Shown here piece after piece: positions 47-44,005 of a stretch of 44,005 nucleotides of DNA. Source of the stretch: Vectrevirus T205P4; sequence record OZ035727.1. One strand, 5' to 3'. Position numbers and translations under genes: made by a program. Every line of letters starts with the position of its first letter. Within the stretch, counting starts at the first letter, position 1. The notes under the pieces were generated by a model. That model worked only from the letters and a program-made list of their open reading frames with translations, did no database searches and was not told where the DNA came from.

Positions 47-329
47 ACATGCAGCTACAGAGGATGAGGTTGGCATTCTGCATGGTGCTATTACCAAAAT
101 CTTCAATAAGAAAGCACAGGCAATACTGGACACTATAGAAGAAGACCCTGATGCAGCATTACATTTAGTGTCTGGTAAGGATATTGGTGCGATGTGTAAG
201 TGGGTTCTTGATAACGGCATTACCGCCACACCTGCTGCACAGCAGGAAGAGTCCAAGTTATCTAAGCGCCTCAAGGCTATCCGAGAGGCATCCAGTGGTA
301 AGATAATTCAATTCACTAAGGAGGATTGA
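30..329 (+). CDS. Terminase small subunit (DNA maturase A-like), 99 aa, GTG start
   Basis: GGAGAGAGAAG RBS before GTG at 30; 4-nt overlap with the large terminase gene; size and position match T7 gp18-type. No motif-level confirmation. Confidence 0.55.
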   Translation: MSVHNKHAATEDEVGILHGAITKIFNKKAQAILDTIEEDPDAALHLVSGKDIGAMCKWVLDNGITATPAAQQEESKLSKRLKAIREASSGKIIQFTKED

Positions 330-2227
330 TGGCTAAGGCAAGAGAATCACAAGCGGAGGCTCTTGCCAGATGGGAGATGCTACAGGAGTTACAGCAGACC
401 TTTCCTTACACAGCGGAAGGTTTGCTTCTCTTTGCAGATACAGTTATTCATAACTTAATTGCAGGCAACCCTCATCTGATTCGTATGCAGGCGGATATCT
501 TGAAGTTCCTATTTTACGGACACAAGTACCGCCTCATCGAAGCGCCTCGTGGTATCGCTAAGACAACATTATCAGCAATCTATACGGTATTCCGTATTAT
601 TCATGAACCGCATAAGCGTATCATGGTTGTGTCCCAAAACGCCAAGCGAGCAGAGGAAATCGCAGGTTGGGTAGTTAAAATCTTCCGTGGCTTAGACTTT
701 CTTGAGTTTATGCTGCCGGATATCTACGCTGGGGACCGTGCATCCGTTAAGGCGTTTGAGATTCATTACACCCTCCGTGGTAGTGATAAGTCTCCTTCTG
801 TATCCTGTTACTCAATCGAAGCAGGTATGCAGGGTGCTCGTGCTGATATTATTCTAGCGGATGACGTAGAGTCGATGCAGAATGCTCGTACGGCAGCGGG
901 CCGTGCCTTGCTTGAGGAACTGACTAAGGAGTTTGAATCTATCAACCAGTTTGGGGATATCATTTACCTTGGTACACCTCAGAACGTAAACTCTATCTAC
1001 AACAACCTACCTGCTCGTGGTTACTCTGTTCGTATCTGGACTGCGCGTTACCCTTCAGTAGAGCAAGAGCAATGTTATGGCGACTTCCTTGCACCTATGA
1101 TTGTTCAAGATATGAAGGACAACCCAGCACTTCGCTCAGGGTACGGGTTGGATGGTAATAGTGGTGCACCTTGTGCCCCTGAAATGTATGATGATGAAGT
1201 CCTGATTGAGAAGGAAATCTCTCAGGGTGCTGCTAAGTTCCAGCTTCAGTTCATGCTTAACACTCGCATGATGGATGCTGACAGATACCCATTACGCCTG
1301 AACAATCTAATCTTCACCTCGTTTGGTACAGAGGAAGTCCCTGTGATGCCTACGTGGAGTAATGATTCCATAAACATCATTGGTGATGCACCTAAGTATG
1401 GTAACAAGCCTACGGATTTCATGTACAGACCTGTAGCTCGCCCATACGAATGGGGTGCTGTCTCCCGCAAGATTATGTATATTGACCCTGCGGGTGGTGG
1501 TAAGAATGGGGACGAGACGGGTGTAGCCATCGTATTCCTGCACGGCACATTCATTTATGTGTATCAGTGCTTTGGTGTACCTGGCGGATACCGAGAATCG
1601 TCCCTGAATCGCATTGTGCAGGCCGCAAAGCAGGCTGGTGTTAAAGAGGTATTCATTGAGAAGAACTTTGGTCATGGCGCGTTTGAGGCGGTAATTAAGC
1701 CGTACTTTGAACGAGAGTGGCCTGTAACTCTGGAAGAGGATTACGCCACCGGACAGAAAGAGTTGCGTATCATTGAGACGCTGGAGCCGCTCATGGCAGC
1801 CCATAGGCTTATCTTCAATGCAGAGATGGTGAAGTCAGACTTTGAGTCGGTACAGCACTATCCGCTTGAACTACGCATGTCCTACAGTCTTTTCAATCAA
1901 ATGTCGAACATAACGATTGAGAAGAACAGCCTCCGGCACGATGACCGCCTAGACGCCCTGTATGGCGCTATACGGCAATTAACTTCTCAGATAGACTATG
2001 ACGAGGTTACACGGATTAATCGCCTCAGAGCGCAGGAGATGCGCGATTACATCCATGCTATGAATACACCTCATCTACGCAGGGCAATGCTATATGGAGA
2101 TTACGGTACTGAGCGAAGAGTGACCAACACTTCCGTAGCGATGCAGCAGCGAGTTTACGGGCAGAACTGCCGAAATAAATCGGCAAGCAGAAATACACTT
2201 TCTGCAAGGATTTCAAGGACTTATTAA
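326..2227 (+). CDS. Terminase large subunit (T7 gp19-like), 633 aa
   Basis: Long ORF with ATPase-type P-loop-like region (EAPRGIAKTT) and the size and position expected of a T7-group large terminase. Confidence 0.92.
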   Translation: MMAKARESQAEALARWEMLQELQQTFPYTAEGLLLFADTVIHNLIAGNPHLIRMQADILKFLFYGHKYRLIEAPRGIAKTTLSAIYTVFRIIHEPHKRIMVVSQNAKRAEEIAGWVVKIFRGLDFLEFMLPDIYAGDRASVKAFEIHYTLRGSDKSPSVSCYSIEAGMQGARADIILADDVESMQNARTAAGRALLEELTKEFESINQFGDIIYLGTPQNVNSIYNNLPARGYSVRIWTARYPSVEQEQCYGDFLAPMIVQDMKDNPALRSGYGLDGNSGAPCAPEMYDDEVLIEKEISQGAAKFQLQFMLNTRMMDADRYPLRLNNLIFTSFGTEEVPVMPTWSNDSINIIGDAPKYGNKPTDFMYRPVARPYEWGAVSRKIMYIDPAGGGKNGDETGVAIVFLHGTFIYVYQCFGVPGGYRESSLNRIVQAAKQAGVKEVFIEKNFGHGAFEAVIKPYFEREWPVTLEEDYATGQKELRIIETLEPLMAAHRLIFNAEMVKSDFESVQHYPLELRMSYSLFNQMSNITIEKNSLRHDDRLDALYGAIRQLTSQIDYDEVTRINRLRAQEMRDYIHAMNTPHLRRAMLYGDYGTERRVTNTSVAMQQRVYGQNCRNKSASRNTLSARISRTY

Positions 2228-3887: not shown

Positions 3888-3910
3888 ATTTACTGGACAC
3901 TATAGAAGAG
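3888..3910 (+). promoter_or_regulatory. Phage RNAP promoter P2 (ATTTACTGGACACTATAGAAGAG) driving the tailspike genes
   Basis: Near-perfect consensus copy 80 nt upstream of the tailspike 1 start. Confidence 0.8.
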
Positions 3911-5973: not shown

Positions 5974-7632
5974 ATGCTACAACGATTAAGTTCTTCACTA
6001 GTGAAGCACAAGAGCAAGCTAATAGGCGCTACCTATAGGCTGCTTGGTGATAAACTTTTAGAGCTAAATAGTGTATCAGATTTTGGTGCAATACCAAATC
6101 TTGAAACAGATAGTACTAATTCCATTCAAGCTGCAATTGATGCGACCCCGTCTGGTGGTACTCTAGGCTTCTATGGTGGGCCTTATAGATTTGGTACTGT
6201 TACAGTGGATAAACCAATTACACTAGTTGGAGATGCAGATTTGCAGTTTGAGTGCATTCGTATCAAGACAAGTAAGTTTCGTAGTTTCTTGACAGGAACA
6301 CTAACTGCTGCGAGATACGACAGTGCATGTCGTGCATTTCAAATCTTAGCCTATGAAGATGGGCAAGATTATGAGGACATCAAGGTACATGGTGCACGTT
6401 TCGAGGGTTTCTTCTATAACACAGACTTCCGAGGCCGCTCTTACGATGCGTCAGAAAGTGATCCTGCTAACAGAGTGGTTCGGGATACCTCTATTATGGG
6501 CTGTACTTCAGTTCAGCCTAAAGATGGTAAAGACAGAGGGCACTTTCAACACGTAGGTGTAACCAATGCCAAATGCATAGGTAACTCAACGTATGGCGGC
6601 AAGAATGCCACTTCTTATAACTTCATTAATGGTAATGGCTCTTTGGTGGTTATGGGTAACTATGACCATGACAATGAATATGGCTCATTAGAGATTGAGA
6701 ATAACAAGATAAGCTATGGTGTGGTTACTGGTAATATCTTCCATAAACAACTATGGATAGATGATACTAGCAACATTAATGTAATAGGTAACACCTGCAC
6801 AGATAGGATTTACATTACTGCACAATCTAACAACTCTGAGAACGTATCAGTAGTGGGAAACAATGTACCACGCATCTACGTCAGTAAGTTTGGTCAAAGC
6901 CCAACAGGTCGTCACCGTAACTTGACCATACGTGGTAATCATATCACTGGCAAGGATGTTCCTAACTGTATATTCTTAGACGATTCTGTGGATTCCGCTT
7001 CTATTGAGGGTAATGATTGTTATGGTGTATCTGGTGTTAGAGGCATAGCCATTACTCGTCATGCAGATGCTAACCATACAGTGCGTCATAATAACTTACA
7101 TGGCACTAACTTGCTCTTTAGTGGTTCGGGTGGCAAAGTTTATAGTTATGACAACTTTGATGTTGGAGTTGATGAATCACCTGTGACAGACAGAACTGAC
7201 GCAGTGCACATTGACAACCTTCTTCGTGTAAATGATGAGTACCTTGATTTGCCAGGAAAGTACCTATACAAATCTAAGTATACAAGAGACATTACACAAG
7301 GAGGCTCCACCACTATTGAGTTACCTATAACCACAAGTGGTACTTTGGCTTTTCGTGGTATTAGTTTATGGGTTCTTATCCGTAACACTTCTACTGGTAA
7401 CTTGTCTTCTTATCGTGTCGATGGAAGACATGCAGTAAGTGGTTCTTCTGTGACTGTTAGTTTTGGAGAGAAGTATGGGGTATTAGGGGTGAATACTGGT
7501 GATGTTACTATTAGTAATGATGCCTCTACGACTAATCTTATTCGTATCAAGGTAAGCAATGAGCATGTAAGTCAGACAATGCAGGTCACAGTTGTACCAG
7601 AGGTAACAAGCAGATTGGGAACTGAAGAGTAA
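5974..7632 (+). CDS. Tailspike protein 2 (552 aa), right-handed beta-helix (pectate-lyase-like) receptor-binding/depolymerase protein
   Basis: AAGGAGG RBS; repeated VxGN/NxxxG beta-helix rungs (VIGNTCTDRIYIT, VVGNNVPRIYVS, IRGNHITGKD); second spike gene directly after spike 1, as in K1-5/SP6-type phages. Confidence 0.85.
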   Translation: MLQRLSSSLVKHKSKLIGATYRLLGDKLLELNSVSDFGAIPNLETDSTNSIQAAIDATPSGGTLGFYGGPYRFGTVTVDKPITLVGDADLQFECIRIKTSKFRSFLTGTLTAARYDSACRAFQILAYEDGQDYEDIKVHGARFEGFFYNTDFRGRSYDASESDPANRVVRDTSIMGCTSVQPKDGKDRGHFQHVGVTNAKCIGNSTYGGKNATSYNFINGNGSLVVMGNYDHDNEYGSLEIENNKISYGVVTGNIFHKQLWIDDTSNINVIGNTCTDRIYITAQSNNSENVSVVGNNVPRIYVSKFGQSPTGRHRNLTIRGNHITGKDVPNCIFLDDSVDSASIEGNDCYGVSGVRGIAITRHADANHTVRHNNLHGTNLLFSGSGGKVYSYDNFDVGVDESPVTDRTDAVHIDNLLRVNDEYLDLPGKYLYKSKYTRDITQGGSTTIELPITTSGTLAFRGISLWVLIRNTSTGNLSSYRVDGRHAVSGSSVTVSFGEKYGVLGVNTGDVTISNDASTTNLIRIKVSNEHVSQTMQVTVVPEVTSRLGTEE

Positions 7633-7781
7633 TGCCATTAATCAAATCAGTTAAGCAAAGTGCTGTACGTCAGAACACAGAAGAACTCATTCAATCAGGA
7701 CGTGACCCTAAGCAAGCTTATGCGATTGCCAAGGATGTACAACGTCGTGCCTTGAAGAAACCTTCTGCATCTTCTGCGTAA
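7632..7781 (+). CDS. Hypothetical small protein, 49 aa
   Basis: TAATG stop/start overlap with tailspike 2; below track cutoff; no recognisable domain. Confidence 0.4.
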   Translation: MPLIKSVKQSAVRQNTEELIQSGRDPKQAYAIAKDVQRRALKKPSASSA

Positions 7782-7852
7782 GCAGGTTAATATCTTAGTA
7801 TAAACAAGGGCAGACCTAGGTTTGCTCTTAGTGTATTTACAATGGAGGTCTT

Positions 7853-7933
7853 ATGTATATACCTATGGAAGCAATAGTAGGTTGCCTATGCTTGTTGATA
7901 GGTTTCGTTATAGGCTTAATAGCAAAGCCTTAG
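7853..7933 (+). CDS. Hypothetical 26-aa hydrophobic micro-protein (MYIPMEAIVGCLCLLIGFVIGLIAKP)
   Basis: GGAGG RBS 5 nt upstream; a single predicted transmembrane helix; last ORF before the terminal non-coding region. Confidence 0.3.
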   Translation: MYIPMEAIVGCLCLLIGFVIGLIAKP

Positions 7934-7987
7934 TCCTGTACAAGGATTAACCAAAGTCAAAATTTTGATATGGTCGTGTGTGAGGTG

Positions 7988-8340
7988 TCTCGCCCTCGCC
8001 CTCGCCGGATTTCCCCCATACGGGTCCGCGCTGCGGTTGGCTTGGGAATTGGGCTGGGCTGGTCCGTCTTCAACCTGCTGCCGCAGGAAGCTCGACGGGT
8101 GGGCGAGGGCTTGCCTTGTACTCGCTTAGTGGTACACAAGGAGAACGCCTAGGAAGCGCTAGGGCACGCCTTAGTATTGGACAAGGTGATTGCCTTAGTT
8201 CAACCGCTTAGGGCTTACACGGGCCGTTTTAGGGCCATTCCTGAGCGTTTGACAGGGTGTGAGGGCGTGGGCTATCTGTTCGTTTCGCTACGCTTCACTC
8301 ACTGCTCCTCACTTCGTTCGTCGCTGCGGTAGCCTGATGT
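7988..8340. other. GC-rich non-coding block, candidate genome terminus / direct terminal repeat
   Basis: Clearly more GC-rich than the rest of the window by eye; begins TCTCGCCCTCGCCCTCGCC and contains TTTCCCCCATACGGG, resembling the T7 left-end motif TTCCCCCATAGGGGG; no credible ORF. Confidence 0.45.
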
Positions 8341-8700
8341 GTACCTTAGGTTATTACTTGATGGATAGCTTAGGTTATAGCTTAGTGGCCTACCTTAGTT
8401 ATAACCTTAGTGCATAGCTTAGTATCAGCTTAGTAGTGTACCTTAGTAAGTCTTAGTGTCTTCTCTTAGTGATTGCACATGCAAGCATGTAAGATGCCAT
8501 TAGGTCGCGGTCGGTAGACCGCTAAAGAAGGAGAATAGTAATAAGATGCAGTAGGAGGAACACCAGAAACCTAGCCAACCTAGCCTATCCTAGCTCTGTA
8601 TCTATTGCTTTTCCTTAGTCTCACACGTTAGACAACCTAGGTTTGTCTTAGTAGTTGCGACATGTATCACATAAATAATCTATCTTAGTGCGATTTAGTG
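8340..8700. repeat. Array of short CTTAGT/CTTAGG motifs (more than 15 copies) in the terminal non-coding region
   Basis: Motif recurs at irregular 10-25 nt spacing (e.g. agcttaggttatagcttagtggcctaccttagttataaccttagtg...); analogous to the CCTAAAG repeats near the T7 left end. Confidence 0.6.
8618..8633. repeat. Degenerate copy of the 16-bp palindrome (GTCTCACACGTTAGAC, 1 mismatch)
   Basis: One substitution relative to the GTCTCACACGTGAGAC family. Confidence 0.4.
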
Positions 8701-8729
8701 TTGACATAGGCAGTTAACAGGTATACATT
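8701..8729 (+). promoter_or_regulatory. Host sigma70-type early promoter (TTGACA-N17-TACATT)
   Basis: Perfect -35 hexamer, 17-bp spacer, 4/6 -10; position equivalent to T7 A1-A3 early promoters. Confidence 0.6.
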
Positions 8730-8881
8730 AGCAATCAGTCGGGAGCGACATTAAATACTCAGGGTGAATGATAGAGAGCGTCCTTAACTATCCGGCCTAG
8801 CTACTGAAGCCGTTAAACAATGTTAGATAGTGGAAGATGGCGCAAGCATAACCTGCCACGATAAACCAAGGTTAGCGCAAT

Positions 8882-8894
8882 GCTCTTTAACAAT
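8882..8894 (+). promoter_or_regulatory. GCTCTTTAACAAT motif, copy 1 (putative RNase III processing site core)
   Basis: Same 13-mer as I recall at the T7 R0.3 RNase III site (ACGCTCTTTAACAATCTGG); lies just upstream of an early gene. Confidence 0.4.
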
Positions 8895-8952
8895 TTGCTT
8901 AGTGTAACCTATGTATGCCGTGGTTAATTACTTATTGAATGAGGAATTAGCT

Positions 8953-9132
8953 ATGACATTAAATAACCGTGAACTATCCGTTCTCTTCACTCTGTTGTGC
9001 TACATGATTCGTAACAACGAATTGCTTACAGATGACGAGTTGGCACTGTATCACCGCTTTCTTAACGAAGGTTGGACCGATACAGTTAATCAATACCGTA
9101 ACATGATAGATGAGTTGAGGGGGGGTAAATAA
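8953..9132 (+). CDS. Hypothetical early protein, about 59 aa
   Basis: GAGGA RBS before ATG at 8953; first gene after the host promoter. Confidence 0.5.
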   Translation: MTLNNRELSVLFTLLCYMIRNNELLTDDELALYHRFLNEGWTDTVNQYRNMIDELRGGK

Positions 9133-9356
9133 TGTATCAACATGAGGTATTCTTTGAATCAGCTAGCGAAGCTATTCGCTTCCGTGATGATATGATGCAA
9201 GCTGGTGTAGGCGTTGATGTGTATCACTATTTGATAGATTACGACACTGAATATCACCGAGTTACCTTAGTATCTGAGTATGACAACCAAGTCATTACTG
9301 AGTATCTAGGCAGTGAAGATTACGATTACGATGAAGTAATCACGACAAATCTCTAA
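9132..9356 (+). CDS. Hypothetical acidic early protein, 74 aa (D/E/Y-rich)
   Basis: GAGGGGGG RBS; stop/start coupled to the previous gene; strongly acidic composition. Confidence 0.55.
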   Translation: MYQHEVFFESASEAIRFRDDMMQAGVGVDVYHYLIDYDTEYHRVTLVSEYDNQVITEYLGSEDYDYDEVITTNL

Positions 9357-9364
9357 ATTAACTG

Positions 9365-9393
9365 TTGACAGCCACGGCATACAAGGTTACATT
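9365..9393 (+). promoter_or_regulatory. Second host sigma70-type early promoter (TTGACA-N17-TACATT)
   Basis: Identical architecture to the promoter at 8701. Confidence 0.6.
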
Positions 9394-9426
9394 AAGCATC
9401 AAGACGGCGACGTCTTTAAACATCCC

Positions 9427-9439
9427 GCTCTTTAACAAT
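9427..9439 (+). promoter_or_regulatory. GCTCTTTAACAAT motif, copy 2 (putative RNase III site), flanked by inverted repeats ATCAAGAC / GTCTTGAT
   Basis: 13-mer identical to copy 1; inverted repeat arms at about 9401-9408 and 9450-9457 could form the long stem. Confidence 0.45.
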
Positions 9440-9485
9440 ACGGTTTGTGTCTTGATAGGCTAACTAACTAACTAAGGTAATTATC

Positions 9486-9596
9486 ATGAAAGGGTTAATT
9501 TGTGTAGAACGTATGGTCAATGGTAAACTTGAAATATTACCACTGGAAAACCAATCTAGCTTCAAAGAGTGGTATGGCTGTTTCTCACTGATTTAA
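9486..9596 (+). CDS. Hypothetical small early protein, 36 aa
   Basis: TAAGGT RBS; small ORF between RNase III-like sites; below track cutoff. Confidence 0.3.
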   Translation: MKGLICVERMVNGKLEILPLENQSSFKEWYGCFSLI

Positions 9597-9638
9597 GGTA
9601 AAGGCTGGCACTAGTCAGCCTATCAAGGCGCAAACCAA

Positions 9639-9651
9639 GCTCTTTAACAAT
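9639..9651 (+). promoter_or_regulatory. GCTCTTTAACAAT motif, copy 3 (putative RNase III site) upstream of ocr
   Basis: Third identical 13-mer (AAGCTCTTTAACAATTTGG). Confidence 0.4.
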
Positions 9652-9745: not shown

Positions 9746-10075
9746 ATGGAACGCAATGCTAACGCTTACTACAACCTTCTGGCTGCAACTGTTGAAGCAT
9801 TCAACGAGCGTATTCAGTTTGATGAGATTCGCGAAGGTGATGATTACTCTGATGCACTACATGAGGTTGTAGACAGCAATGTTCCAGTTTATTACAGCGA
9901 AATCTTTACAGTGATGGCTGCTGATGGTATTGATGTTGATTTTGAGGATGCTGGTTTGATTCCTGACACGAAGGATGTAACCAAGATTCTACAAGCTCGC
10001 ATCTATGAAGCTCTTTATAATGATGTACCAAATGACAGCGATGTAGTTTGGTGTGAAGGCGAAGAAGAGGAATAA
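9746..10075 (+). CDS. ocr: Ocr-like anti-restriction DNA-mimic protein (T7 gp0.3 homolog), 109 aa
   Basis: [45 protein letters not shown] aligns with T7 Ocr [45 protein letters not shown]; acidic C-terminus; TGAGGA RBS. Confidence 0.88.
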   Translation: [109 protein letters not shown]

Positions 10076-14320: not shown

Positions 14321-14361
14321 TTCCTCTTATTACTACTTAGAGGAAAGGGCAGACTTAGGTT

Positions 14362-14377
14362 GTCTCACATGTGAGAC
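14362..14377. repeat. 16-bp palindrome GTCTCACATGTGAGAC, copy 2
   Basis: Perfect palindrome, 4 nt upstream of promoter P4. Confidence 0.8.
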
Positions 14378-22181: not shown

Positions 22182-22202
22182 TTACTGGACACTATAGAAC
22201 AA
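22180..22202 (+). promoter_or_regulatory. Phage RNAP promoter P7 (AATTACTGGACACTATAGAACAA)
   Basis: Consensus-like, with AAC in place of AAG after the start site. Confidence 0.7.
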
Positions 22203-22258
22203 TAGGTCGGCTTAGTTCGGCCTATGATTGTGTAGTGTAACAATAGGAGACTAAATAA

Positions 22259-23776: not shown

Positions 23777-23808
23777 CCCTGTCTGCCTTAGTGTAGGCAG
23801 GGTCTTTT
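23777..23808 (+). terminator. Hairpin plus U-tract after the 23399 gene
   Basis: CTGCC...GGCAG stem followed by GGTCTTTTG. Confidence 0.45.
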
Positions 23809-33539: not shown

Positions 33540-35941
33540 TGGAAGTACAAGGTTCATTAGGTAGACAAATCCAAGGGATTAGCCAGCAGCCTCCAGCGGT
33601 ACGTCTTGATGGTCAATGTACGACTATGGTGAACATGGTCCCTGATGTAGTGAATGGAACTCAATCCCGCATGGGTACAACTCACATTGCTAAGCTCTTG
33701 GATGAAGGTACAGATAATATGGCAACGCACCATTATCGCAGGGGTGAGGGAGATGAAGAGTATTTCTTCACCTTAAAGAAGGGGCAAGTGCCAGAGATAT
33801 TTGATAAGCATGGACGCAAGTGCAATGTCATCTCTCAAGATGCACCTATTGCCTACCTTTCTGAAGTTGTTAACCCTAGGGAAGATGTGCAATTCATGAC
33901 TATAGCTGATGTTACTTTTATGCTTAACCGTAGGAAAGTGGTTAAAGTTAGTAATAGGAAGTCACCTAAAGTTGGAGATAAAGCCATTGTGTTTTGTGCA
34001 TATGGTCAATACGGTACATCTTATTCCATTGTAATTAATGGGGCCAACGCTGCTAGTTTTAAAACACCGGATGGTGGAAGTGCAGACCATGTTGAACAAA
34101 TTCGAACTGAACGTATCACTTCTGAATTGTACTCTAAGTTGCAGCAATGGAGCGGTGTGAGTGACTATGAAATACAAAGAGACGGTACTAGTATATTTAT
34201 CGAGAGACGGGATGGTGCTAGCTTTACAATAACAACCACCGATGGTGCAAAAGGTAAGGACTTAGTGGCTATCAAGAATAAAGTTAGCTCTACTGACCTA
34301 CTCCCTTCTCGTGCTCCTGCTGGTTATAAAGTACAAGTGTGGCCTACTGGCAGCAAACCTGAGTCTCGTTACTGGCTGCAAGCTGAGCCTAAAGAGGGAA
34401 ACCTTGTATCTTGGAAAGAAACAATAGCTGCCGATGTATTACTTGGGTTTGATAAAGGCACAATGCCTTACATTATTGAACGTACAGGTATCATCAACGG
34501 CATAGCTCAATTCAAGATAAGACAAGGTGATTGGGAAGATCGTAAAGTAGGGGATGACTTGACTAACCCTATGCCCTCTTTTATTGATGAGGAAGTACCC
34601 CAGACAATAGGTGGAATGTTCATGGTGCAGAACCGCCTATGCTTTACAGCAGGTGAAGCGGTTATTGCTTCTCGTACATCATACTTCTTCGATTTCTTTC
34701 GTTATACGGTTATCTCTGCATTGGCAACTGACCCATTTGATATTTTCTCAGATGCTAGCGAAGTCTACCAGCTAAAACATGCAGTGACCTTAGATGGCGC
34801 TACCGTGTTGTTCTCTGATAAGTCACAATTCATACTGCCAGGCGATAAGCCTTTAGAGAAGTCAAATGCATTGCTTAAGCCTGTTACAACATTTGAAGTG
34901 AACAATAAAGTGAAGCCAGTAGTAACTGGTGAATCGGTAATGTTTGCCACTAATGATGGTTCTTACTCTGGTGTACGAGAGTTCTATACAGACTCTTATA
35001 GTGACACTAAGAAGGCACAAGCAATCACAAGTCATGTGAATAAACTCATCGAAGGTAACATTACCAACATGGCAGCAAGCACCAATGTCAACAGGTTACT
35101 TGTCACTACCGATAAGTATCGTAACATAATCTACTGCTACGATTGGTTATGGCAAGGAACAGACCGTGTACAATCAGCATGGCATGTATGGAAGTGGCCT
35201 ATAGGTACAAAGGTGCGAGGTATGTTTTATTCTGGTGAATTACTTTACCTGCTCCTTGAGCGAGGGGATGGCGTATATCTGGAGAGGATGGACATGGGTG
35301 ATGCACTAACCTACGGTTTGAATGACCGCATCAGAATGGATAGGCAAGCAGAGTTAGTCTTCAAGTATTTTAAAGCAGAAGATGAATGGGTGTCTGAACC
35401 GCTTCCTTGGACTCCTACTAACCCAGAACTTTTAGATTGCATCTTAATCGAGGGTTGGGATTCATATATTGGTGGCTCTTTCTTATTCAAGTACAACCCT
35501 AGTGACAATACTTTGTCTACAACCTTTGATATGTATGATGACAGTCATGTAAAAGCGAAGGTTATTGTTGGTCAGATTTACCCTCAAGAGTTTGAACCTA
35601 CACCTGTGGTTATCAGAGACAATCAAGACCGTGTATCCTATATTGATGTACCAGTTGTAGGATTGGTTCACCTTAATCTTGACATGTACCCCGATTTCTC
35701 CGTAGAAGTTAAGAATGTGAAGAGTGGTAAAGTACGTAGAGTATTAGCGTCAAACCGTATAGGTGGTGCTCTCAATAATACAGTAGGCTATGTTGAACCG
35801 AGAGAAGGTGTCTTCAGATTTCCACTGAGAGCTAAGAGCACGGATGTTGTTTATCGTATTATTGTAGAGGCACCCCATACATTCCAGCTTCGTGATATTG
35901 AGTGGGAAGGGAGCTACAATCCAACCAAAAGGAGGGTCTAA
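33539..35941 (+). CDS. Tail tubular protein B (gp12-like), about 800 aa
   Basis: N-terminal GISQQP motif as in T7 gp12; TAATG coupling to the upstream gene. Confidence 0.88.
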   Translation: MEVQGSLGRQIQGISQQPPAVRLDGQCTTMVNMVPDVVNGTQSRMGTTHIAKLLDEGTDNMATHHYRRGEGDEEYFFTLKKGQVPEIFDKHGRKCNVISQDAPIAYLSEVVNPREDVQFMTIADVTFMLNRRKVVKVSNRKSPKVGDKAIVFCAYGQYGTSYSIVINGANAASFKTPDGGSADHVEQIRTERITSELYSKLQQWSGVSDYEIQRDGTSIFIERRDGASFTITTTDGAKGKDLVAIKNKVSSTDLLPSRAPAGYKVQVWPTGSKPESRYWLQAEPKEGNLVSWKETIAADVLLGFDKGTMPYIIERTGIINGIAQFKIRQGDWEDRKVGDDLTNPMPSFIDEEVPQTIGGMFMVQNRLCFTAGEAVIASRTSYFFDFFRYTVISALATDPFDIFSDASEVYQLKHAVTLDGATVLFSDKSQFILPGDKPLEKSNALLKPVTTFEVNNKVKPVVTGESVMFATNDGSYSGVREFYTDSYSDTKKAQAITSHVNKLIEGNITNMAASTNVNRLLVTTDKYRNIIYCYDWLWQGTDRVQSAWHVWKWPIGTKVRGMFYSGELLYLLLERGDGVYLERMDMGDALTYGLNDRIRMDRQAELVFKYFKAEDEWVSEPLPWTPTNPELLDCILIEGWDSYIGGSFLFKYNPSDNTLSTTFDMYDDSHVKAKVIVGQIYPQEFEPTPVVIRDNQDRVSYIDVPVVGLVHLNLDMYPDFSVEVKNVKSGKVRRVLASNRIGGALNNTVGYVEPREGVFRFPLRAKSTDVVYRIIVEAPHTFQLRDIEWEGSYNPTKRRV

Positions 35942-36687
35942 TGGCTATAGGTTCAGCCGTTATGGCTGGTATGTCTTCTATTGGTAGTATGTTTGCAGGT
36001 AGCGGTACAGCAGCCGCTGCTGGTGGTACTGCCGCAGCAGCAGGAGGGACAGCCGCCGCAGGTGGCGGAGGTTTGCTTGGCTCCCTTGGTAGTTTCTTAG
36101 GAGGTTCTTCTGCTGGCTTCTCTAATGCAGGACTGCTTAGTGCAGGTATGCAAGGTCTTGGTCTTCTAGGCAATCTTTTTGGTGGAAGTGATGAAGCCAA
36201 AGCTATGAAGAAAGCTCAGGAGGAGCAATGGCGGCAGCAGTTAATTGCTACACAAGAAGCATATAAGACAGTGGCAGATGCAGAACGCTCTGCTGCTAAA
36301 CAGTATCATGCGGATGCAATAAGCAATCAGGCTTCACTGCTACAGCAAAGAGCGCAGGTTGCACTACTTGCAGGTGCAACTGGCACTGGTGGTAACTCTA
36401 TATCTTCTATGCTGAATGACTTAGCAGCAGAGGGCGGGAGGAACCAGAGTACAATTATTGATAACTATGAGAATCAGAAGATTAACTTCACCAATCAGCT
36501 TAAGTCTATCCAGCGAGGTGGACAGATGCAGATGCGTGAGTTTAAGAAGCCTTCTGCCGTGAGCACCTTGGTGCAAGGTATACCGAGTCTGGCATCTGCC
36601 TATGTAACAGGTAGTAAGTCCGGCATGGCTTTAGGTAAAGCTTTAACTGATTCTCGTACATATTCATCTGGAACAAGAGGTATTTAA
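35941..36687 (+). CDS. Internal virion protein (gp14-like, Gly/Ala-rich N-terminus), about 249 aa
   Basis: AGGAGGG RBS; first of three internal-core genes. Confidence 0.7.
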   Translation: MAIGSAVMAGMSSIGSMFAGSGTAAAAGGTAAAAGGTAAAGGGGLLGSLGSFLGGSSAGFSNAGLLSAGMQGLGLLGNLFGGSDEAKAMKKAQEEQWRQQLIATQEAYKTVADAERSAAKQYHADAISNQASLLQQRAQVALLAGATGTGGNSISSMLNDLAAEGGRNQSTIIDNYENQKINFTNQLKSIQRGGQMQMREFKKPSAVSTLVQGIPSLASAYVTGSKSGMALGKALTDSRTYSSGTRGI

Positions 36688-39635
36688 TGGCAATTGAGCG
36701 ACAAGCAGTACAAGGTCTGCCACAAGTGCAGGCCACTTCTCCTAATGTCATGACCTTTGCACCTCAGCGAGTTGGAGGTGTGGAGGCTGGCGTAGCTTCT
36801 ACCTCCGGTAGTCGATTTATCGAAGACCTTATTCGAGCAGCCAGTAGTGTAGCTGATGTAACCACTGGTATCCTTAATCAAAAGATTGAGGAAGATAAGG
36901 TTGTTCAAATGGAACGGGCATATAACGGATTAATGCCTTCTGAGGATGCAACTCGTGGTGGCGCTCGTGCTAACATGCTTGTCAAAGCTCAACTGCTAGC
37001 TAATGATGAAGCAGCACGAATGAAAGACATGGCTACTCGTTTCCAAGGAACGGATGACGAGTGGACACAACTTATGGTTGACTCTCGTAATGAGATGCAG
37101 AATAAGCTGTTCCAGCAATACCCTGAGTTGCAAGGTGACAAAGATACTATGCGTATGGTCACTAATGTCTTCCAAGAACAGCAGCCTCAGATTTGGGCTA
37201 CACGAACCCAGCATAAACTTGACCGTGAACAAGCAGACCGTGAGGATACCTTTGACGGGCGAGTGGCTTCTACTTGGGATTCTAATATTGACCCTGAAGC
37301 CTCTGGCTATGCTTTACAGGAACGAATCCGCGAAGGTCTTACTCAAGGATTACTACCTGAACAGATGCACAAGAAGTTAGTCCAGCGAGCAATTTCACTT
37401 GCACAAGGCGGTGATGTTAGCATGGCTGAAGCCCTGAAGTATGTGAAGGACGATAAGGGTGTTTCTGTTTATGCTAAGAATCCACAGCTTATCACAGCCA
37501 TCACTAGTGGTAATGCAGTTTGGGCTAGGAATAATGTAGCTGATGTAACTCGTATGTCTTTCGAAGTTAAAGAATCCTACCTTGCAGGTGATTTAACTGA
37601 TGAAGAATTGTTGGAACGAGCACAGCACATTAATAATCTGACAGGTAACTCTGTCTTCTCTAATCCAGAGCTAGAGGCACTGATGCGCCAACGGGCTAAG
37701 CAGAATGCAGAGCTAGGTGCAATGCAGGATATGCGACGTGAGCTTTACTCCGACCGCCTGACTGGCTTCCAAGGTAAGACTGATAAAGAGAAGAAGGCTT
37801 ACATTGATGTTATCAAACAAGATAGCCAACTTTATGCAGACCAGCAAATCAAACAACGTGGCTTGGACCCTTACAGTCAAGAGGCTGAAGCTATTCGTGG
37901 TGCAGTGGAAGTGCAGCGCCTACAATTCATGAACTCCAAAGGCTTAGTGGATGATACCTTTGAGTCTCGTATCAAAGCCATGGAATCTATGCTATCGCCT
38001 GAGCACTTTGCCAAGGGCGAACCACAAGAGTTGATGACTATTCGCCAGTTGTGGGAACAGTTGCCAGAAGAGAGCCGAGGTGTCTTTGGTGACACGGTGA
38101 ATGGCTACATGGATAACTACAACACTGCACTACAAATGGGAGAGACACCTTTGCAGGCTGCAAGGTTTGCGCGTGAAGCACAGCAGAAATTCTCTCGTAC
38201 TGAGAAGGAAACCAAGAAGTTCAACTCAGCTATTGGAGAGGCACTGGATGAGGTGTCTGGTGCTGGCTGGTTTGATGGTAAAACCGAAGTGTCAGACTTA
38301 GGTAAAGCTATTGCGGAAGAAGAGTTACGAGCTAAGGCCAATATGTTGTGGTCTAGTGGTATGCGTAACATGGATTCCATCAAGAAGGCTTTAATTACTT
38401 GGGGCAATAAACGCTACACTCAATCAGAGGATGCAAAGACTTCCGGTGGCTATTTCATTAAAGGTGATTACACTTCTGCATCTGATATGCTTATGTCAGT
38501 TGGGAAAGGCGTAAACCCTACCGATGTACCTCTGGCGCTTGGTAGGTATGTAGAAACACAGATGCCAGAATTGAAGAAGGAGCTTCAAGAGTGGGAAACT
38601 AAAGATGATATATACATTGATTACAATGAACAGAAAGGAACTTTTGTGATTCGTGCTGGTGCAGCAGGTCGCCCTCTTTCTGGAGTAATCCCTGTAACCT
38701 CTTTAGATACTACTTCACTACTAGATTCTGCCTATCAGAAGAAAGTAGAGGAACGAGATAAAGGCGAGTATGTTCACCCGTATCGTACAGATATTGGTGC
38801 ACAAGAGCCTATGCCAGCTAAACCAACTGCCAAAGATATTGGTAAATTTGGACTAGCTAACTTCCTCATGTCTTCTGCTTTTGCTTCTGGTGAGAATCTG
38901 CCTTCTAACTTCGAGATTAACTATCGAGGTAATATGCAACAATTCTATGACAAGCTAGCTATGGATGAGAATAAAGATAAAGTTGGCTTTAATAAGGCAA
39001 CTGGAACCTTTACTCCATATAAAGACGCTCACGGTGAGTCTATCGGTTACGGTCATTTCTTAACGGAAGAAGAGAAGCGAAACGGGTATATTAAGATTGG
39101 CGATGAACTAGTTCCCTATCGAGGGTCTATGTCTCAGCTTACAGAGAGCAAGGCTCGCGCCCTTATGGAGCAAGATGCTAAGAAGCATGTGCCTCCTACT
39201 CGTGACTGGAAGATTCCGTTTGACCAGATGCATCCTGCACAGCAACGTGGCTTGATGGATTTAACCTACAATTTAGGTAAAGGTGGAATCCAGAACTCAC
39301 CGCGTGCTCTTGCTGCATTCAAAGCTGGTAAGCTTACGGAGGGTTTTATCGAAATGCTGGGCACTGCATCAAGTGAAGGTAAGCGTATTCCTGGCCTACT
39401 GAAGCGACGCGCTGAGGCATACAATATGGCATCTGCTGGTGGTGTGCCTAAGATTACCGAAGTGGAGACTCGTGAAGATGGCTCCATGTGGGTTAGGTTT
39501 GGTGGACCTATGCCAGCAGGTTCTGTCTCGGCATGGACTCATAAACGTATTGGCGCGGATGGTTGGTATCAGGTTTATGAGGCTGCACCTACCAAGTTAG
39601 CTAAAGGTTCTAAGGTAGGTAAAGTTAAGTTGTAG
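36687..39635 (+). CDS. Internal virion (ejection) protein with C-terminal lysozyme-like peptidoglycan hydrolase domain, 982 aa
   Basis: C-terminal region ESIGYGHFLT ... LMDLTYNLGKGG ... GKRIPGLLKRRAEAY resembles T4/lambda-type lysozyme folds. Confidence 0.8.
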   Translation: MAIERQAVQGLPQVQATSPNVMTFAPQRVGGVEAGVASTSGSRFIEDLIRAASSVADVTTGILNQKIEEDKVVQMERAYNGLMPSEDATRGGARANMLVKAQLLANDEAARMKDMATRFQGTDDEWTQLMVDSRNEMQNKLFQQYPELQGDKDTMRMVTNVFQEQQPQIWATRTQHKLDREQADREDTFDGRVASTWDSNIDPEASGYALQERIREGLTQGLLPEQMHKKLVQRAISLAQGGDVSMAEALKYVKDDKGVSVYAKNPQLITAITSGNAVWARNNVADVTRMSFEVKESYLAGDLTDEELLERAQHINNLTGNSVFSNPELEALMRQRAKQNAELGAMQDMRRELYSDRLTGFQGKTDKEKKAYIDVIKQDSQLYADQQIKQRGLDPYSQEAEAIRGAVEVQRLQFMNSKGLVDDTFESRIKAMESMLSPEHFAKGEPQELMTIRQLWEQLPEESRGVFGDTVNGYMDNYNTALQMGETPLQAARFAREAQQKFSRTEKETKKFNSAIGEALDEVSGAGWFDGKTEVSDLGKAIAEEELRAKANMLWSSGMRNMDSIKKALITWGNKRYTQSEDAKTSGGYFIKGDYTSASDMLMSVGKGVNPTDVPLALGRYVETQMPELKKELQEWETKDDIYIDYNEQKGTFVIRAGAAGRPLSGVIPVTSLDTTSLLDSAYQKKVEERDKGEYVHPYRTDIGAQEPMPAKPTAKDIGKFGLANFLMSSAFASGENLPSNFEINYRGNMQQFYDKLAMDENKDKVGFNKATGTFTPYKDAHGESIGYGHFLTEEEKRNGYIKIGDELVPYRGSMSQLTESKARALMEQDAKKHVPPTRDWKIPFDQMHPAQQRGLMDLTYNLGKGGIQNSPRALAAFKAGKLTEGFIEMLGTASSEGKRIPGLLKRRAEAYNMASAGGVPKITEVETREDGSMWVRFGGPMPAGSVSAWTHKRIGADGWYQVYEAAPTKLAKGSKVGKVKL

Positions 39636-42885: not shown

Positions 42886-43847
42886 TGAGTTATACTTTCA
42901 CAGAACATATAGCCAACGGTACGCAAGTAACCTATCCCTTTAGATTTGCTGGCAGGGATAAAGGCTATCTTCGTGCCTCAGATGTGATAGTGGAATCTCT
43001 TCAAGGTAACACTTGGATTGAGGTTACATCTGGCTGGCAATTAACTGGTACGCATCAAATCACTTTTGATGTAGCACCTGTTGCAGGTTTGAAGTTCCGT
43101 ATTCGAAGGGAAGTACAAAAGGAATATCCATACGCTGAGTTTGACCGTGGTGTTACCTTGGATATGAAGTCTTTAAATGGCTCTTTCATTCATATACTGG
43201 AGATTACACAGGAGTTACTTGATGGGTTTTATCCAGAAGGATACTTCATTAAACAGAATGTAAGCTGGGGCGGCAATAAGATTACTGATTTGGCTGATGG
43301 CACAAATCCGGGAGATGCAGTAAATAAGGGGCAGCTTGATGCCATCGACAAGAAGCATACAGATTGGAACGCCAAACAGGACATTGAGATTGCTGGCCTT
43401 AAGGCTGGTATGACTTCTGGTATTGCGCACAGAACTGTTCCTTGGTACACGATAGCCCAAGGTGGTGAGATTTCCGTAAAACCACCTTATGAATTTCAAG
43501 ATGCACTAGTTTTCCTTAATGGGGTATTGCAGCACCAAATTGTAGGCGCATACTCTATAAGCAACAACACTATCACTTTCGCAGAGCCGCTTGTGGCTGG
43601 TACAGAGGTGTATGTGTTGATTGGTAGTCGTGTGGCTACATCTGAACCTAATATTCAGTTAGAGTTGAACTTTGACTTAGTAGAAGGCCAACAAGTAGTA
43701 CAGATTGGCTCTGCATTTAAGTACATTGAGGTCTACCTTGATGGATTATTACAACCTAAACTTGCTTATCAGGTAGACGGTGACATTGTTACTTTCTCAG
43801 AGGGAGTGCCAGAATGCCGGATGACTGCTAAGATTATCACAGAATAA
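42885..43847 (+). CDS. Tail fiber adaptor protein (homolog of the T7 gp17 N-terminal tail-attachment domain), about 320 aa
   Basis: N-terminal region parallels the T7 gp17 tail-binding domain in pattern; lacks a receptor-binding domain, consistent with an adaptor that carries the two tailspikes. Confidence 0.85.
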   Translation: MSYTFTEHIANGTQVTYPFRFAGRDKGYLRASDVIVESLQGNTWIEVTSGWQLTGTHQITFDVAPVAGLKFRIRREVQKEYPYAEFDRGVTLDMKSLNGSFIHILEITQELLDGFYPEGYFIKQNVSWGGNKITDLADGTNPGDAVNKGQLDAIDKKHTDWNAKQDIEIAGLKAGMTSGIAHRTVPWYTIAQGGEISVKPPYEFQDALVFLNGVLQHQIVGAYSISNNTITFAEPLVAGTEVYVLIGSRVATSEPNIQLELNFDLVEGQQVVQIGSAFKYIEVYLDGLLQPKLAYQVDGDIVTFSEGVPECRMTAKIITE

Positions 43848-43856
43848 GGAGGTGGG

Positions 43857-44005
43857 ATGATTAACTCCGAACTGGTAGATAGTGGTGTGAAGCTTGCGCC
43901 ACCTGCACTCGTATCAGGTGGGTACTTCCTCGGTATCAGTTGGGATAATTGGGTGTTAATAGCAACATTCATTTATACCGTGTTGCAAATTGGGGACTGG
44001 TTTTA
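43857..44005 (+). CDS. Holin, T7 gp17.5-like (class II), 5' part; ORF runs off the window end
   Basis: AAGGAGG RBS; ...ATFIYTVLQIGDWF aligns with T7 holin ...AAIAYTVVQIGAKV as I recall it. Confidence 0.7.
   Translation, partial: MINSELVDSGVKLAPPALVSGGYFLGISWDNWVLIATFIYTVLQIGDWF

Follow-up and report, generated by a model that had tools for sequence, protein, structure and literature searches.

The probable terminal region of a K1E/K1-5-like Vectrevirus genome and its array of co-oriented hexamers

A non-coding interval in a permuted Vectrevirus genome

In the genome of Vectrevirus T205P4 (sequence record OZ035727.1; the whole stretch analysed, 44,005 nucleotides (nt), is called here the window) an interval of about 1 kb, from 7934 to 8952, separates the last genes of the right end from the first early genes. 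It contains a putative terminal repeat in a single copy, an array of co-oriented hexamers of the type CTTAGT or CTTAGG, a conserved block with two helices and the first early promoter (Table 1). The genes that flank this region belong to the same PHROGs as those of SP6 and K1-5. On the left side, the SP6 record has a gene 49 of 25 amino acids (aa) annotated at the position matching the gene at 7853-7933, and the terminator-like hairpin found before this gene has equivalents in K1E, K1-5 and SP6. On the right side, gene 1 of K1-5 opens with the same ATGACATTAAATAACCG as the gene at 8953, which is followed by a gene of 74 aa and then by an Ocr-like gene (9746-10075). The early genes adjoining the region code for this Ocr-like protein and for tiny proteins to which no function was assigned by match.

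The open reading frames (ORFs) detected mechanically within 7934-8952 code for only 31-60 aa. None of the five compared with PHROG (7970-8152, 8177-8332, 8259-8417 and 7965-8129 on the plus strand and 7957-8139 on the minus strand) gave a match, and the same was true in Pfam for the four that were compared there (all of these except 7965-8129). Besides, the start codons are not conserved in the relatives (the ATG at 7970 is ATA in them) and the indels found among relatives in the array involve whole units or odd numbers of bases, not multiples of three, which excludes coding. On these three grounds coding in the interval was rejected, and the statement of the original prediction, made from the letters of the DNA, that no credible ORF lies between 7934 and 8950 is borne out by the lack of PHROG and Pfam matches and by the unconserved start codons. 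When 7500-9500 was scanned permissively against Rfam, the only match was a chance one to a small nucleolar RNA (E = 0.6).

The region 7800-9000 matched by megablast 103 phage records, all of them SP6-group podoviruses and mostly from the genus Vectrevirus, with hosts belonging to Escherichia (E. coli), Salmonella, Klebsiella, Citrobacter and Raoultella; its identity to any deposited record was only ~83-92%. The comparison for membership of the genus was made with the two ends of the window, 1-700 and 43306-44005, which were 99-100% identical to Vectrevirus records (99.4% for 1-700 against K1-5). Judged from these similarities, the window is a Vectrevirus genome (Molineuxvirinae) of the K1E/K1-5 type, within the SP6 branch of the T7 supergroup. 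The last 700 bases of the window correspond to 35420-36119 of EEc2 and the first 700 to 36120-36819, i.e. they are adjacent in that genome across the holin and small-terminase genes, indicating that the window represents a single unit of the genome, circularly permuted and with its opening in the late (holin/terminase) region, just as had been proposed from the sequence.

Matches to the SP6 promoter are distributed over the genome, 10 on the plus strand and one on the minus strand, with 0.05 expected by chance; eight of them end in GACACTATAG and six read ATTTACYGGACACTATAG. Spread promoters for a single-subunit RNA polymerase and genes on one strand are characteristic of the T7 supergroup, and both are found here, with a GC skew that is positive throughout the window. 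The terminase genes are also of the T7 type, with a gp18-like small subunit and a gp19-like large one. A structure search found no solved structures for relatives of the small subunit.

Table 1 Features of the putative terminal region and of the genes referred to in the text (positions in the window; a caret marks a cut)
Feature	Position	Strand	Basis or remarks
Small terminase subunit, 99 aa	30-329		PF11123, 59.7 bits (cut-off 27.5); phrog_891
Large terminase subunit	326-2227		Large-terminase PHROG matches
Tail protein (right-end gene)	5974-7632		Phage protein family match
49-aa protein (right-end gene)	7632-7781		Phage protein family match
Hairpin AAGGGCAGAC-CTAG-GTTTGCTCTT, CCTAGG at its tip, T-rich tail after it	7806-7829	+	Terminator-like; between the 49-aa and 26-aa genes
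Last gene of the genome, 26-aa hydrophobic peptide, counterpart of SP6 gp49	7853-7933	+	phrog_37692, E = 1.2e-14
Unique segment of the right end, 37 bp, abutting the repeat in the concatemer (predicted)	7951-7987	+	Conserved in all SP6-group relatives
Perfect 12-bp palindrome TCAAAATTTTGA	7957-7968		Ends 19 bp left of the putative left-end cut site
Direct terminal repeat (predicted), 287 bp, single collapsed copy	7988-8274	+	Alignment to deposited linear genomes
Three CTCGCC units, extreme left terminus (predicted)	7989-8006	+	Tandem Repeats Finder, period 6, 3.0 copies, 100% matches
T7-like end motif TTTCCCCCATACGGG	8010-8024	+	TCCCCATAGGG core kept in the T7 supergroup, its distance from the end being similar
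Inner hexamer set, 7 sites, right half of the repeat	8125-8233	+	CTTAGT 8125, CCTAGG 8148, GCTAGG 8158, CTTAGT 8170, CTTAGT 8194, CTTAGG 8207, TTTAGG 8228
Right repeat boundary GGGCTA^TCTGTTCG (predicted)	8269-8282	+	CTATCTGTT core common to T7 and T3 (CCCT^ATCTGTT)
Core array, 10 co-oriented CTTAGG or CTTAGT	8345-8470	+	Starts 8345, 8369, 8381, 8394, 8406, 8418, 8429, 8442, 8452, 8465
Conserved block directly right of the core array	8473-8530	+	Two helices and TAAGATGC
Helix 1, palindrome ACATGCaaGCATGT	8477-8490		Compensatory changes among relatives
Helix 2, GC hairpin GCGGTCggtaGACCGC	8507-8522		Invariant in 14 phages (three genera)
Three CCTAGC(C), 9-bp spacing	8568-8594	+	Tandem Repeats Finder, period 9
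First early promoter for the host RNA polymerase (sigma-70), TTGACA-17-TACATT	8701-8729	+	Relatives have CTTAGTgaaaCTTAGTgTTGACA
Presumed rrn-type boxA TGCTCTTTAACAA, early leader	8881-8893	+	CTTAGT at 8898 right after it
First gene of the genome, 59 aa, gp1 counterpart; right limit of the non-coding region	8953-9132	+	phrog_9275, E = 3e-40

The putative terminal repeat and its boundaries

Aligned with the linear genomes deposited for its relatives, the genome very probably has its left physical end at 7988 and its right end at 8274 (or 8273), a confidence that applies jointly to the identity of the ends and to their coordinates. The records of K1E, fTuEco01 and KAW1A4500 start at the equivalent of 7988 (base 189 of the megablast query) and that of mutPK1A2 at 7989 (base 190), several of these linear records matching the region at both of their ends. 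The left ends of the linear records of K1E, mutPK1A2, K1-5 and SP6 all fall within 0-2 nt of 7988, and the right boundary, GGGCTA^TCTGTT, is identical in the four and corresponds to the step between 8274 and 8275 of the window. The repeats of these four phages open with (TC)TCGCCCTCGCC or TCTCTCGGCC and close with GGGCGTGGGCTA, followed by TCTGTTC. When the repeat of each relative was measured as the longest prefix of its record equal to a suffix, the lengths obtained were 288 bp for K1E, 286 for mutPK1A2, 234 for K1-5, 174 for SP6 and 160 for T7. The repeat of the window has 92.0% identity to that of K1E, 93.8% to that of mutPK1A2 and 64% to that of K1-5. A repeat is also annotated in the records of mutPK1A2, Mt1B1_P10, P3a, UAB_Phi78 and Era103, and Bal31 digestion together with run-off sequencing was used to map the one of UAB_Phi78, a relative of SP6 (PMC4837284).

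The putative repeat is GC-rich (0.606 versus 0.452 window-wide), in agreement with the GC-rich first block that had been noticed in the original prediction, and the two motifs quoted there are indeed found in it, TCTCGCCCTCGCCCTCGCC at 7988, where it is unique within the window, and TTTCCCCCATACGGG in the position given in Table 1. The right-boundary motif CTATCTGTT, the hexamers inside the repeat and the conserved hairpin block at the right of the array are additional to what had been noticed. The CTCGCC units at the terminus have variants in the relatives, CTCGGC in SP6 and CGCCCGT in the Klebsiella phages. The TTCCCCCATA core begins 24 nt from the presumed end, the same offset at which T7 has TTCCCCCATAGGGGG (nt 24-38), with TTCCCCCATACGGG of the window located 24-37 nt from that end, and in K1E, K1-5, SP6 and Era103 the core of the TCCCCATAGGG type is found at nt 26-37. 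At the right boundary, Era103 has the variant GGCT^ATCTATCC.

Assemblers routinely merge, circularise or delete terminal repeats of this kind (PMC3350473; PMC10438801). Of the 25-mers sampled from 7988-8274, with a start every five positions, none has a second copy in the window, and no overlap was found between the window ends, indicating that the repeat is present once. The virion genome should thus have ~44,292 bp (44,005 + 287) and start at position 7988 of the window. The prediction that the physical ends lie in this region is in this way supported by homology to the deposited termini of K1E, mutPK1A2, K1-5 and SP6, and the collapse of the repeat to one copy, also predicted, by the absence of recurring 25-mers. 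It would be extremely improbable that the ends were elsewhere, or the genome circularly permuted, and the region just an ordinary intergenic homologue of the ends of other phages. The window carries no direct evidence of ends and some relatives are labelled as circular (P3a, KpnP_HY), but the boundary sequences show conservation down to the nucleotide, both with four linear genomes that were deposited independently and with T7, T3 and Era103, the terminase is of the T7 type, and in the 'circular' records the repeat is nonetheless annotated or the junction is the same.

In the segment at the left of the repeat, the block CCAAAGTCAAAATTTTGAT(A/G)TAGGCGTGTGTCAGCTC is found in K1-5, SP6, mutPK1A2 and the Klebsiella and Citrobacter phages. 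The palindrome TCAAAATTTTGA is kept in nearly all the SP6-group relatives examined, K1E having TAAAAATTTTGA instead, and is a candidate for part of a junction-recognition or repeat-duplication signal. T7 has an A/T-rich block at an equivalent distance from the cut site. The 10 bp abutting the cut site (7978-7987) read GTGTGAGGTG in the window, GTGTCAGCTC in nearly all the relatives examined and GTGTCAGC in SP6, and their last bases are also variable in UAB_Phi78, Kpp-61 and KpnP_HY; apart from this local difference at the cut site the block is conserved.

The hexamer array and its surroundings

The motif CTTAGT or CTTAGG (CTTAGK) appears 18 times on the plus strand of 7934-8903 and not once on the minus strand, while 0.56 copies would be expected from its rate elsewhere in the window, a 32-fold excess (Poisson P = 3e-21). 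Ten of these copies make up the core array, four are located inside the terminal repeat and the other four are scattered (8614, 8647, 8684 and 8898). The original prediction counted more than 15 copies in the ~360 bp after the GC-rich block; the strong enrichment holds, but the number does not, 8284-8644 containing 11. The core array begins 71 bp past the right boundary of the repeat, after a variable, C/T-rich spacer, and its first interval is of 24 bp, the following ones having a mean of 12.0 bp. It was the top-scoring repeat of the window in Tandem Repeats Finder (periods 12, 24 and 48). The seven sites of the inner set are separated by 23, 10, 12, 24, 13 and 21 bp (most of them ~11.5-12 bp or the double) and are also present in K1E, mutPK1A2, K1-5, P3a and CrRp3. 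The inner and core sets bracket the right boundary of the repeat, and three more hexamer copies are found to the left of the repeat (7794, 7827 and 7929). A common lattice of 11.75 bp joining the inner and outer sets (resultant 0.87) was discounted, since some period will always align two arrays and the length of the spacer varies among the relatives.

We have compared the array with the same region of 13 relatives belonging to three genera (Vectrevirus, Zindervirus and Ulipvirus). All 13 have 6-10 co-oriented hexamers at the equivalent position, and the series of spacings (24, 11-12, 13, 12, 12, 11, 13, 10, 13) is near-identical in K1E, K1-5 and CrRp3. In the Klebsiella phages the two leftmost units are CTTATG. 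In a MAFFT alignment that was itself anchored by the hexamers, so that the contrast is somewhat inflated, the mean majority fraction was 0.91 for the hexamer columns and 0.65 for the spacer columns (Mann-Whitney P = 6e-13), and 29 of 60 hexamer columns were invariant against six of 66 spacer columns (Fisher P = 9e-7). Even so, the pattern can be recognised in the alignment by eye. The array could be seen as a functionless micro-repeat, generated by slippage and tolerated in non-coding DNA, as the number of copies varies from 6 to 10 among the relatives, with whole units gained or lost (ACG-C91, Kenya-K11, Kpp-61), and the motif drifts by lineage (CTTATG in the Klebsiella phages and Era103, CCTAAAG in T7). 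We consider this very improbable. The hexamers are far better conserved than the spacers in three genera, their orientation is strict (21 to 0) with no copies on the minus strand, and the position of the array relative to the repeat is kept from T7 to SP6. Moreover, slippage would copy whole 12-bp units with their spacers, yet the spacers differ, and because of this the hexamers themselves appear to be under selection.

No annotation of the array is present in the GenBank records that we inspected, including those of K1E, mutPK1A2, K1-5 and SP6, and a full-text literature search, whose reach did not include the original SP6 and K1-5 genome papers, found no published description of it. When IMG/VR was scanned for three CTTAGT at 11-13-bp spacing, at least 120 loci were retrieved, of which only nine had the SP6-group hairpin block, indicating that the short hexamer pattern alone is not diagnostic. 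Solitary CTTAGK or CCTAGG motifs were also seen at the tips of hairpins in other intergenic regions of the window (7806-7829, ~14340-14375, ~22195-22230 and 23777-23805), some of them terminator-like.

No promoter or Rfam match explains the conserved hairpin block at 8473-8530. A sigma-70 promoter there was rejected: no match was obtained, and the TTGCAC/TAAGAT pair picked manually has a spacer of 11 nt. The TAAGATGC of the block is repeated ~55 bp downstream, at ~8545. Helix 1 exists as two haplotypes, ACATGCaaGCATGT in the window, K1-5, P3a and ACG-C91 and ATAGCTaaAGCTAT in K1E and most others, which differ on both sides of four of the six pairs with pairing retained; 98% of the cells are paired, and sliding the partners lowers this to 23-37%. 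This change is a single haplotype switch, as far as the alignment tells, although four compensatory pairs arising by chance in one event seem unlikely. The repeat at 7988-8274 is of the K1E/mutPK1A2 type while helix 1, ~200 bp rightward, carries the haplotype of K1-5, a mosaic that suggests recombination within the terminal region. The CCTAGC repeats located further right are kept in the relatives from E. coli, Raoultella and Citrobacter and in SP6; UAB_Phi78 has two of them and they are absent from Kenya-K11 and the Klebsiella phages.

The array might also be regarded as an iteron-like element for replication or recombination, either a secondary origin or a site for the formation or resolution of concatemers. 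Regular, co-oriented short repeats are typical of origins, the array is adjoined by an invariant GC hairpin and a covarying palindrome, and the equivalent region of T7, near phiOL, has a secondary origin. However, phage promoters prime the origins of the T7 type, whereas no SP6-type promoter, the equivalent of phiOL or phiOR, was found in 7934-8950 at three or fewer mismatches, the nearest ones being at 3888 and 10184. In addition, six-base repeats are far shorter than classical iterons and the array has no adjacent initiator gene such as iteron-type origins have, making this role distinctly unlikely.

The -35 element of the first early promoter is directly preceded by a CTTAGT (8684) and a TTTAGT (8693). 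The sequence TGCTCTTTAACAA, which we take to be a boxA from the antiterminator of the E. coli rrn operons, is present on the plus strand also at 9426-9438 and 9638-9650, and two of the three copies are located shortly downstream of sigma-70 promoters (8701 and 9365). The same 13-mer is found in T7, near nt 812. The boxA leader suggests a host-type antitermination of early transcription. This neighbourhood raises the alternative that, instead of serving in packaging, the hexamers bind a regulator or host factor acting on the DNA that enters first (for example on the early promoters or on how the leading end enters). Every relative has a hexamer right before the -35 of its first early promoter (CTTAGT-N4-CTTAGTgTTGACA), K1-5 has one inside the promoter spacer, another follows the boxA at 8898, and in T7 a CTTAAAG overlaps the -35 element of A1; if the left end leads as in T7, the array would also lie within the few hundred bp that enter first. 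We find this alternative unlikely nonetheless. The core array is 230-350 bp upstream of the promoter with a conserved block in between, seven hexamers belong to the repeat, a few others are at the right end of the genome, which has no early promoter, and no candidate regulator was identified.

Comparison with other phages and proposed function of the junction

The order of elements described for the window is the same in K1E (AM084415), mutPK1A2 (MG004687), K1-5 (AY370674) and SP6 (AY370673). All have the left end TCTCGCCCTCGCC, the right boundary and the right-end palindrome block, the CTTAGT array with almost the same spacing, and the same hairpin block, promoter and boxA leader. The resemblance extends to T7 and T3, which have a short exact terminal repeat (160 or 231 bp), a left end TCTC, a motif of the TTCCCCCATAGGG type ~24 nt from the end and CTATCTGTT at the right boundary, where the repeat ends in GTGTCCCT^ATCTGTT compared to GTGGGCTA^TCTGTT in the window. 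They also have, following the left repeat directly, an array of co-oriented motifs of 6-7 bp at 12-13-bp spacing, and beyond it host promoters and a boxA. In T7 the heptamers, of the type CCTAAAG, are found at 175, 188, 213, 226, 239 and on to 355, mostly 13 bp apart; three more lie within the repeat and a few precede the right-hand repeat, and T3 is similar. The window shares with T7 at least six co-oriented copies, the spacing of ~12-13 bp and the presence of copies inside and left of the repeat. The T7 arrays are presumably the ones that Dunn and Studier reportedly named SRL and SRR in the T7 sequence paper of 1983, and to our knowledge no function has been assigned to them since.

There are also differences from T7 and T3. 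The motif is not the same (CCTAAAG there, CTTAGT or CTTAGG here); on the opposite strand the T7 motif reads CTTTAGG, close to CTTAGG, and if both were related the orientation would be inverted, but with six bases the resemblance may be due to chance. The phage promoters phiOL and phiOR flank the junction in T7 and T3 and have no counterpart here, and the gap from repeat to array is ~70 bp here and ~14 bp in T7. By its layout, the array of the window is the SP6-group counterpart of the CCTAAAG array of T7. The more distant Molineuxvirinae phage Era103 keeps both the left-end and the right-boundary motifs, but has no CTTAGT array in its 180-620 region, where several, looser CCTTATGG copies and GGCTAGGCTA repeats follow a repeat of 277 bp. 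From these comparisons, the array motif seems to drift between lineages while the layout persists.

Several short repeats flank the site of terminase cutting also in lambda (the R-sites of cosB, and cosQ) and in P1 (the hexamers that flank pac), cosQ being a termination signal read by the translocating motor; the likeness to our array is in layout only, since the terminase families differ. A second analogy is with ParR/parC and with the omega protein and its heptads, in which short direct repeats are bound cooperatively by small dimeric proteins. These arrays also have ~10 co-oriented short repeats about one helical turn apart, but partition is not a function to be expected of a lytic phage, and among the proteins encoded here no ribbon-helix-helix protein was identified.

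Considered as a whole, the interval is probably the concatemer-junction (terminal) region of a K1E/K1-5-like Vectrevirus. The virion DNA would run rightward from 7988, around the permuted window, to 8274, with the repeat at both ends, and the assembler would have merged the two copies of the repeat and opened the circle in the holin/terminase region. Less is understood about how ends are formed in T3/T7-like phages than about their formation in cos or headful systems (PMC13595956). In the T7 group, the terminase cuts at the concatemer junction (PMC3350473), maturation cleavage in T3 and T7 is sequence-specific, with gp18 as the DNA-binding small terminase (PMC3185743), and the packaging of T7 phagemids requires a pac site and the terminal repeat (PMC13236587). 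Extrapolating from T7 biology, replicated genomes would join via the repeat into concatemers with one repeat per junction, and the T7-type terminase would cut sequence-specifically at N^TCTC, between 7987 and 7988, and at CTA^TCTG, between 8274 and 8275, the repeat being duplicated meanwhile.

That the array may be a signal for packaging, concatemer processing or replication, as suggested in the original prediction, is reasonable and agrees with how strongly it is conserved. We tentatively propose that the co-oriented hexamers of the inner set and the core array may be an oriented multi-site platform for protein binding, most likely for the 99-aa small terminase subunit. The platform would mark the junction for cutting or else signal termination to a motor that comes from the right. 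Packaging of T7 DNA starts with the right end, so that the motor would meet the array shortly before the final cut, and a strictly oriented array in that position would suit a termination signal similar to cosQ.

Several points weigh against this interpretation, in addition to the inflated conservation contrast already mentioned. As regards the ends, homology is the whole basis on which they were placed here, the left ends of the deposited relatives differ by 0-2 nt, and the right cut is ambiguous by 1 nt (CTA^TCT in SP6-group records and CT^ATCT in T7, T3 and Era103), a difference that could come from a non-templated A in run-off data. Furthermore, the UAB_Phi78 record (NC_020414.2) displaces the repeat (1-180) leftward, by ~15 nt at the start and by ~10 nt at the end, with respect to the boundaries of the SP6 type, which reflects either a true difference of ends or an imprecise run-off mapping. 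The sequence of UAB_Phi78 also contains boundaries of the SP6 type, TCTCTCGGCC at 16 and GGGCTA^TCTGTT at 190. As regards the array, our literature search found no report of protein binding to the hexamers for any phage, and the spacing of 12 bp corresponds to non-integral helical turns, which is awkward for a simple wrapping around a ring. In T7 and T3, the sequences essential for packaging were reportedly assigned by deletion mapping to the right-end side of the junction, with no role for the left-side array, and this, if right, argues against an essential role of the array in initiation. Finally, hexamers are also found beside the early promoter and, in other intergenic regions, within hairpins, indicating that the motif may have more than one use.

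This architecture is already present in the published genomes of K1E, K1-5 and SP6 and in the relatives of T7, and the finding is correct but largely ordinary. The ends fix the true start, end and length of the genome, which are needed to deposit it correctly, to compare it with relatives and to reboot or engineer the phage. The footprint across genera, with invariant hexamers, drifting spacers, two boundary motifs and one invariant and one covarying hairpin, shows the experimenter the exact bases to mutate; it refines a known picture and will not surprise the specialist. A more ambitious reading, which we regard as rather doubtful, is that hexamer arrays are the long-missing recognition element of T7-type terminases, an oriented landing or stop platform for the 99-aa subunit. 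If this were true, the platform would tell the machinery where to place the two staggered cuts and when to terminate, the short-repeat arrays of T7 would be the same device with a different motif, and the covarying palindrome and the invariant hairpin would serve for the duplication of the repeat.

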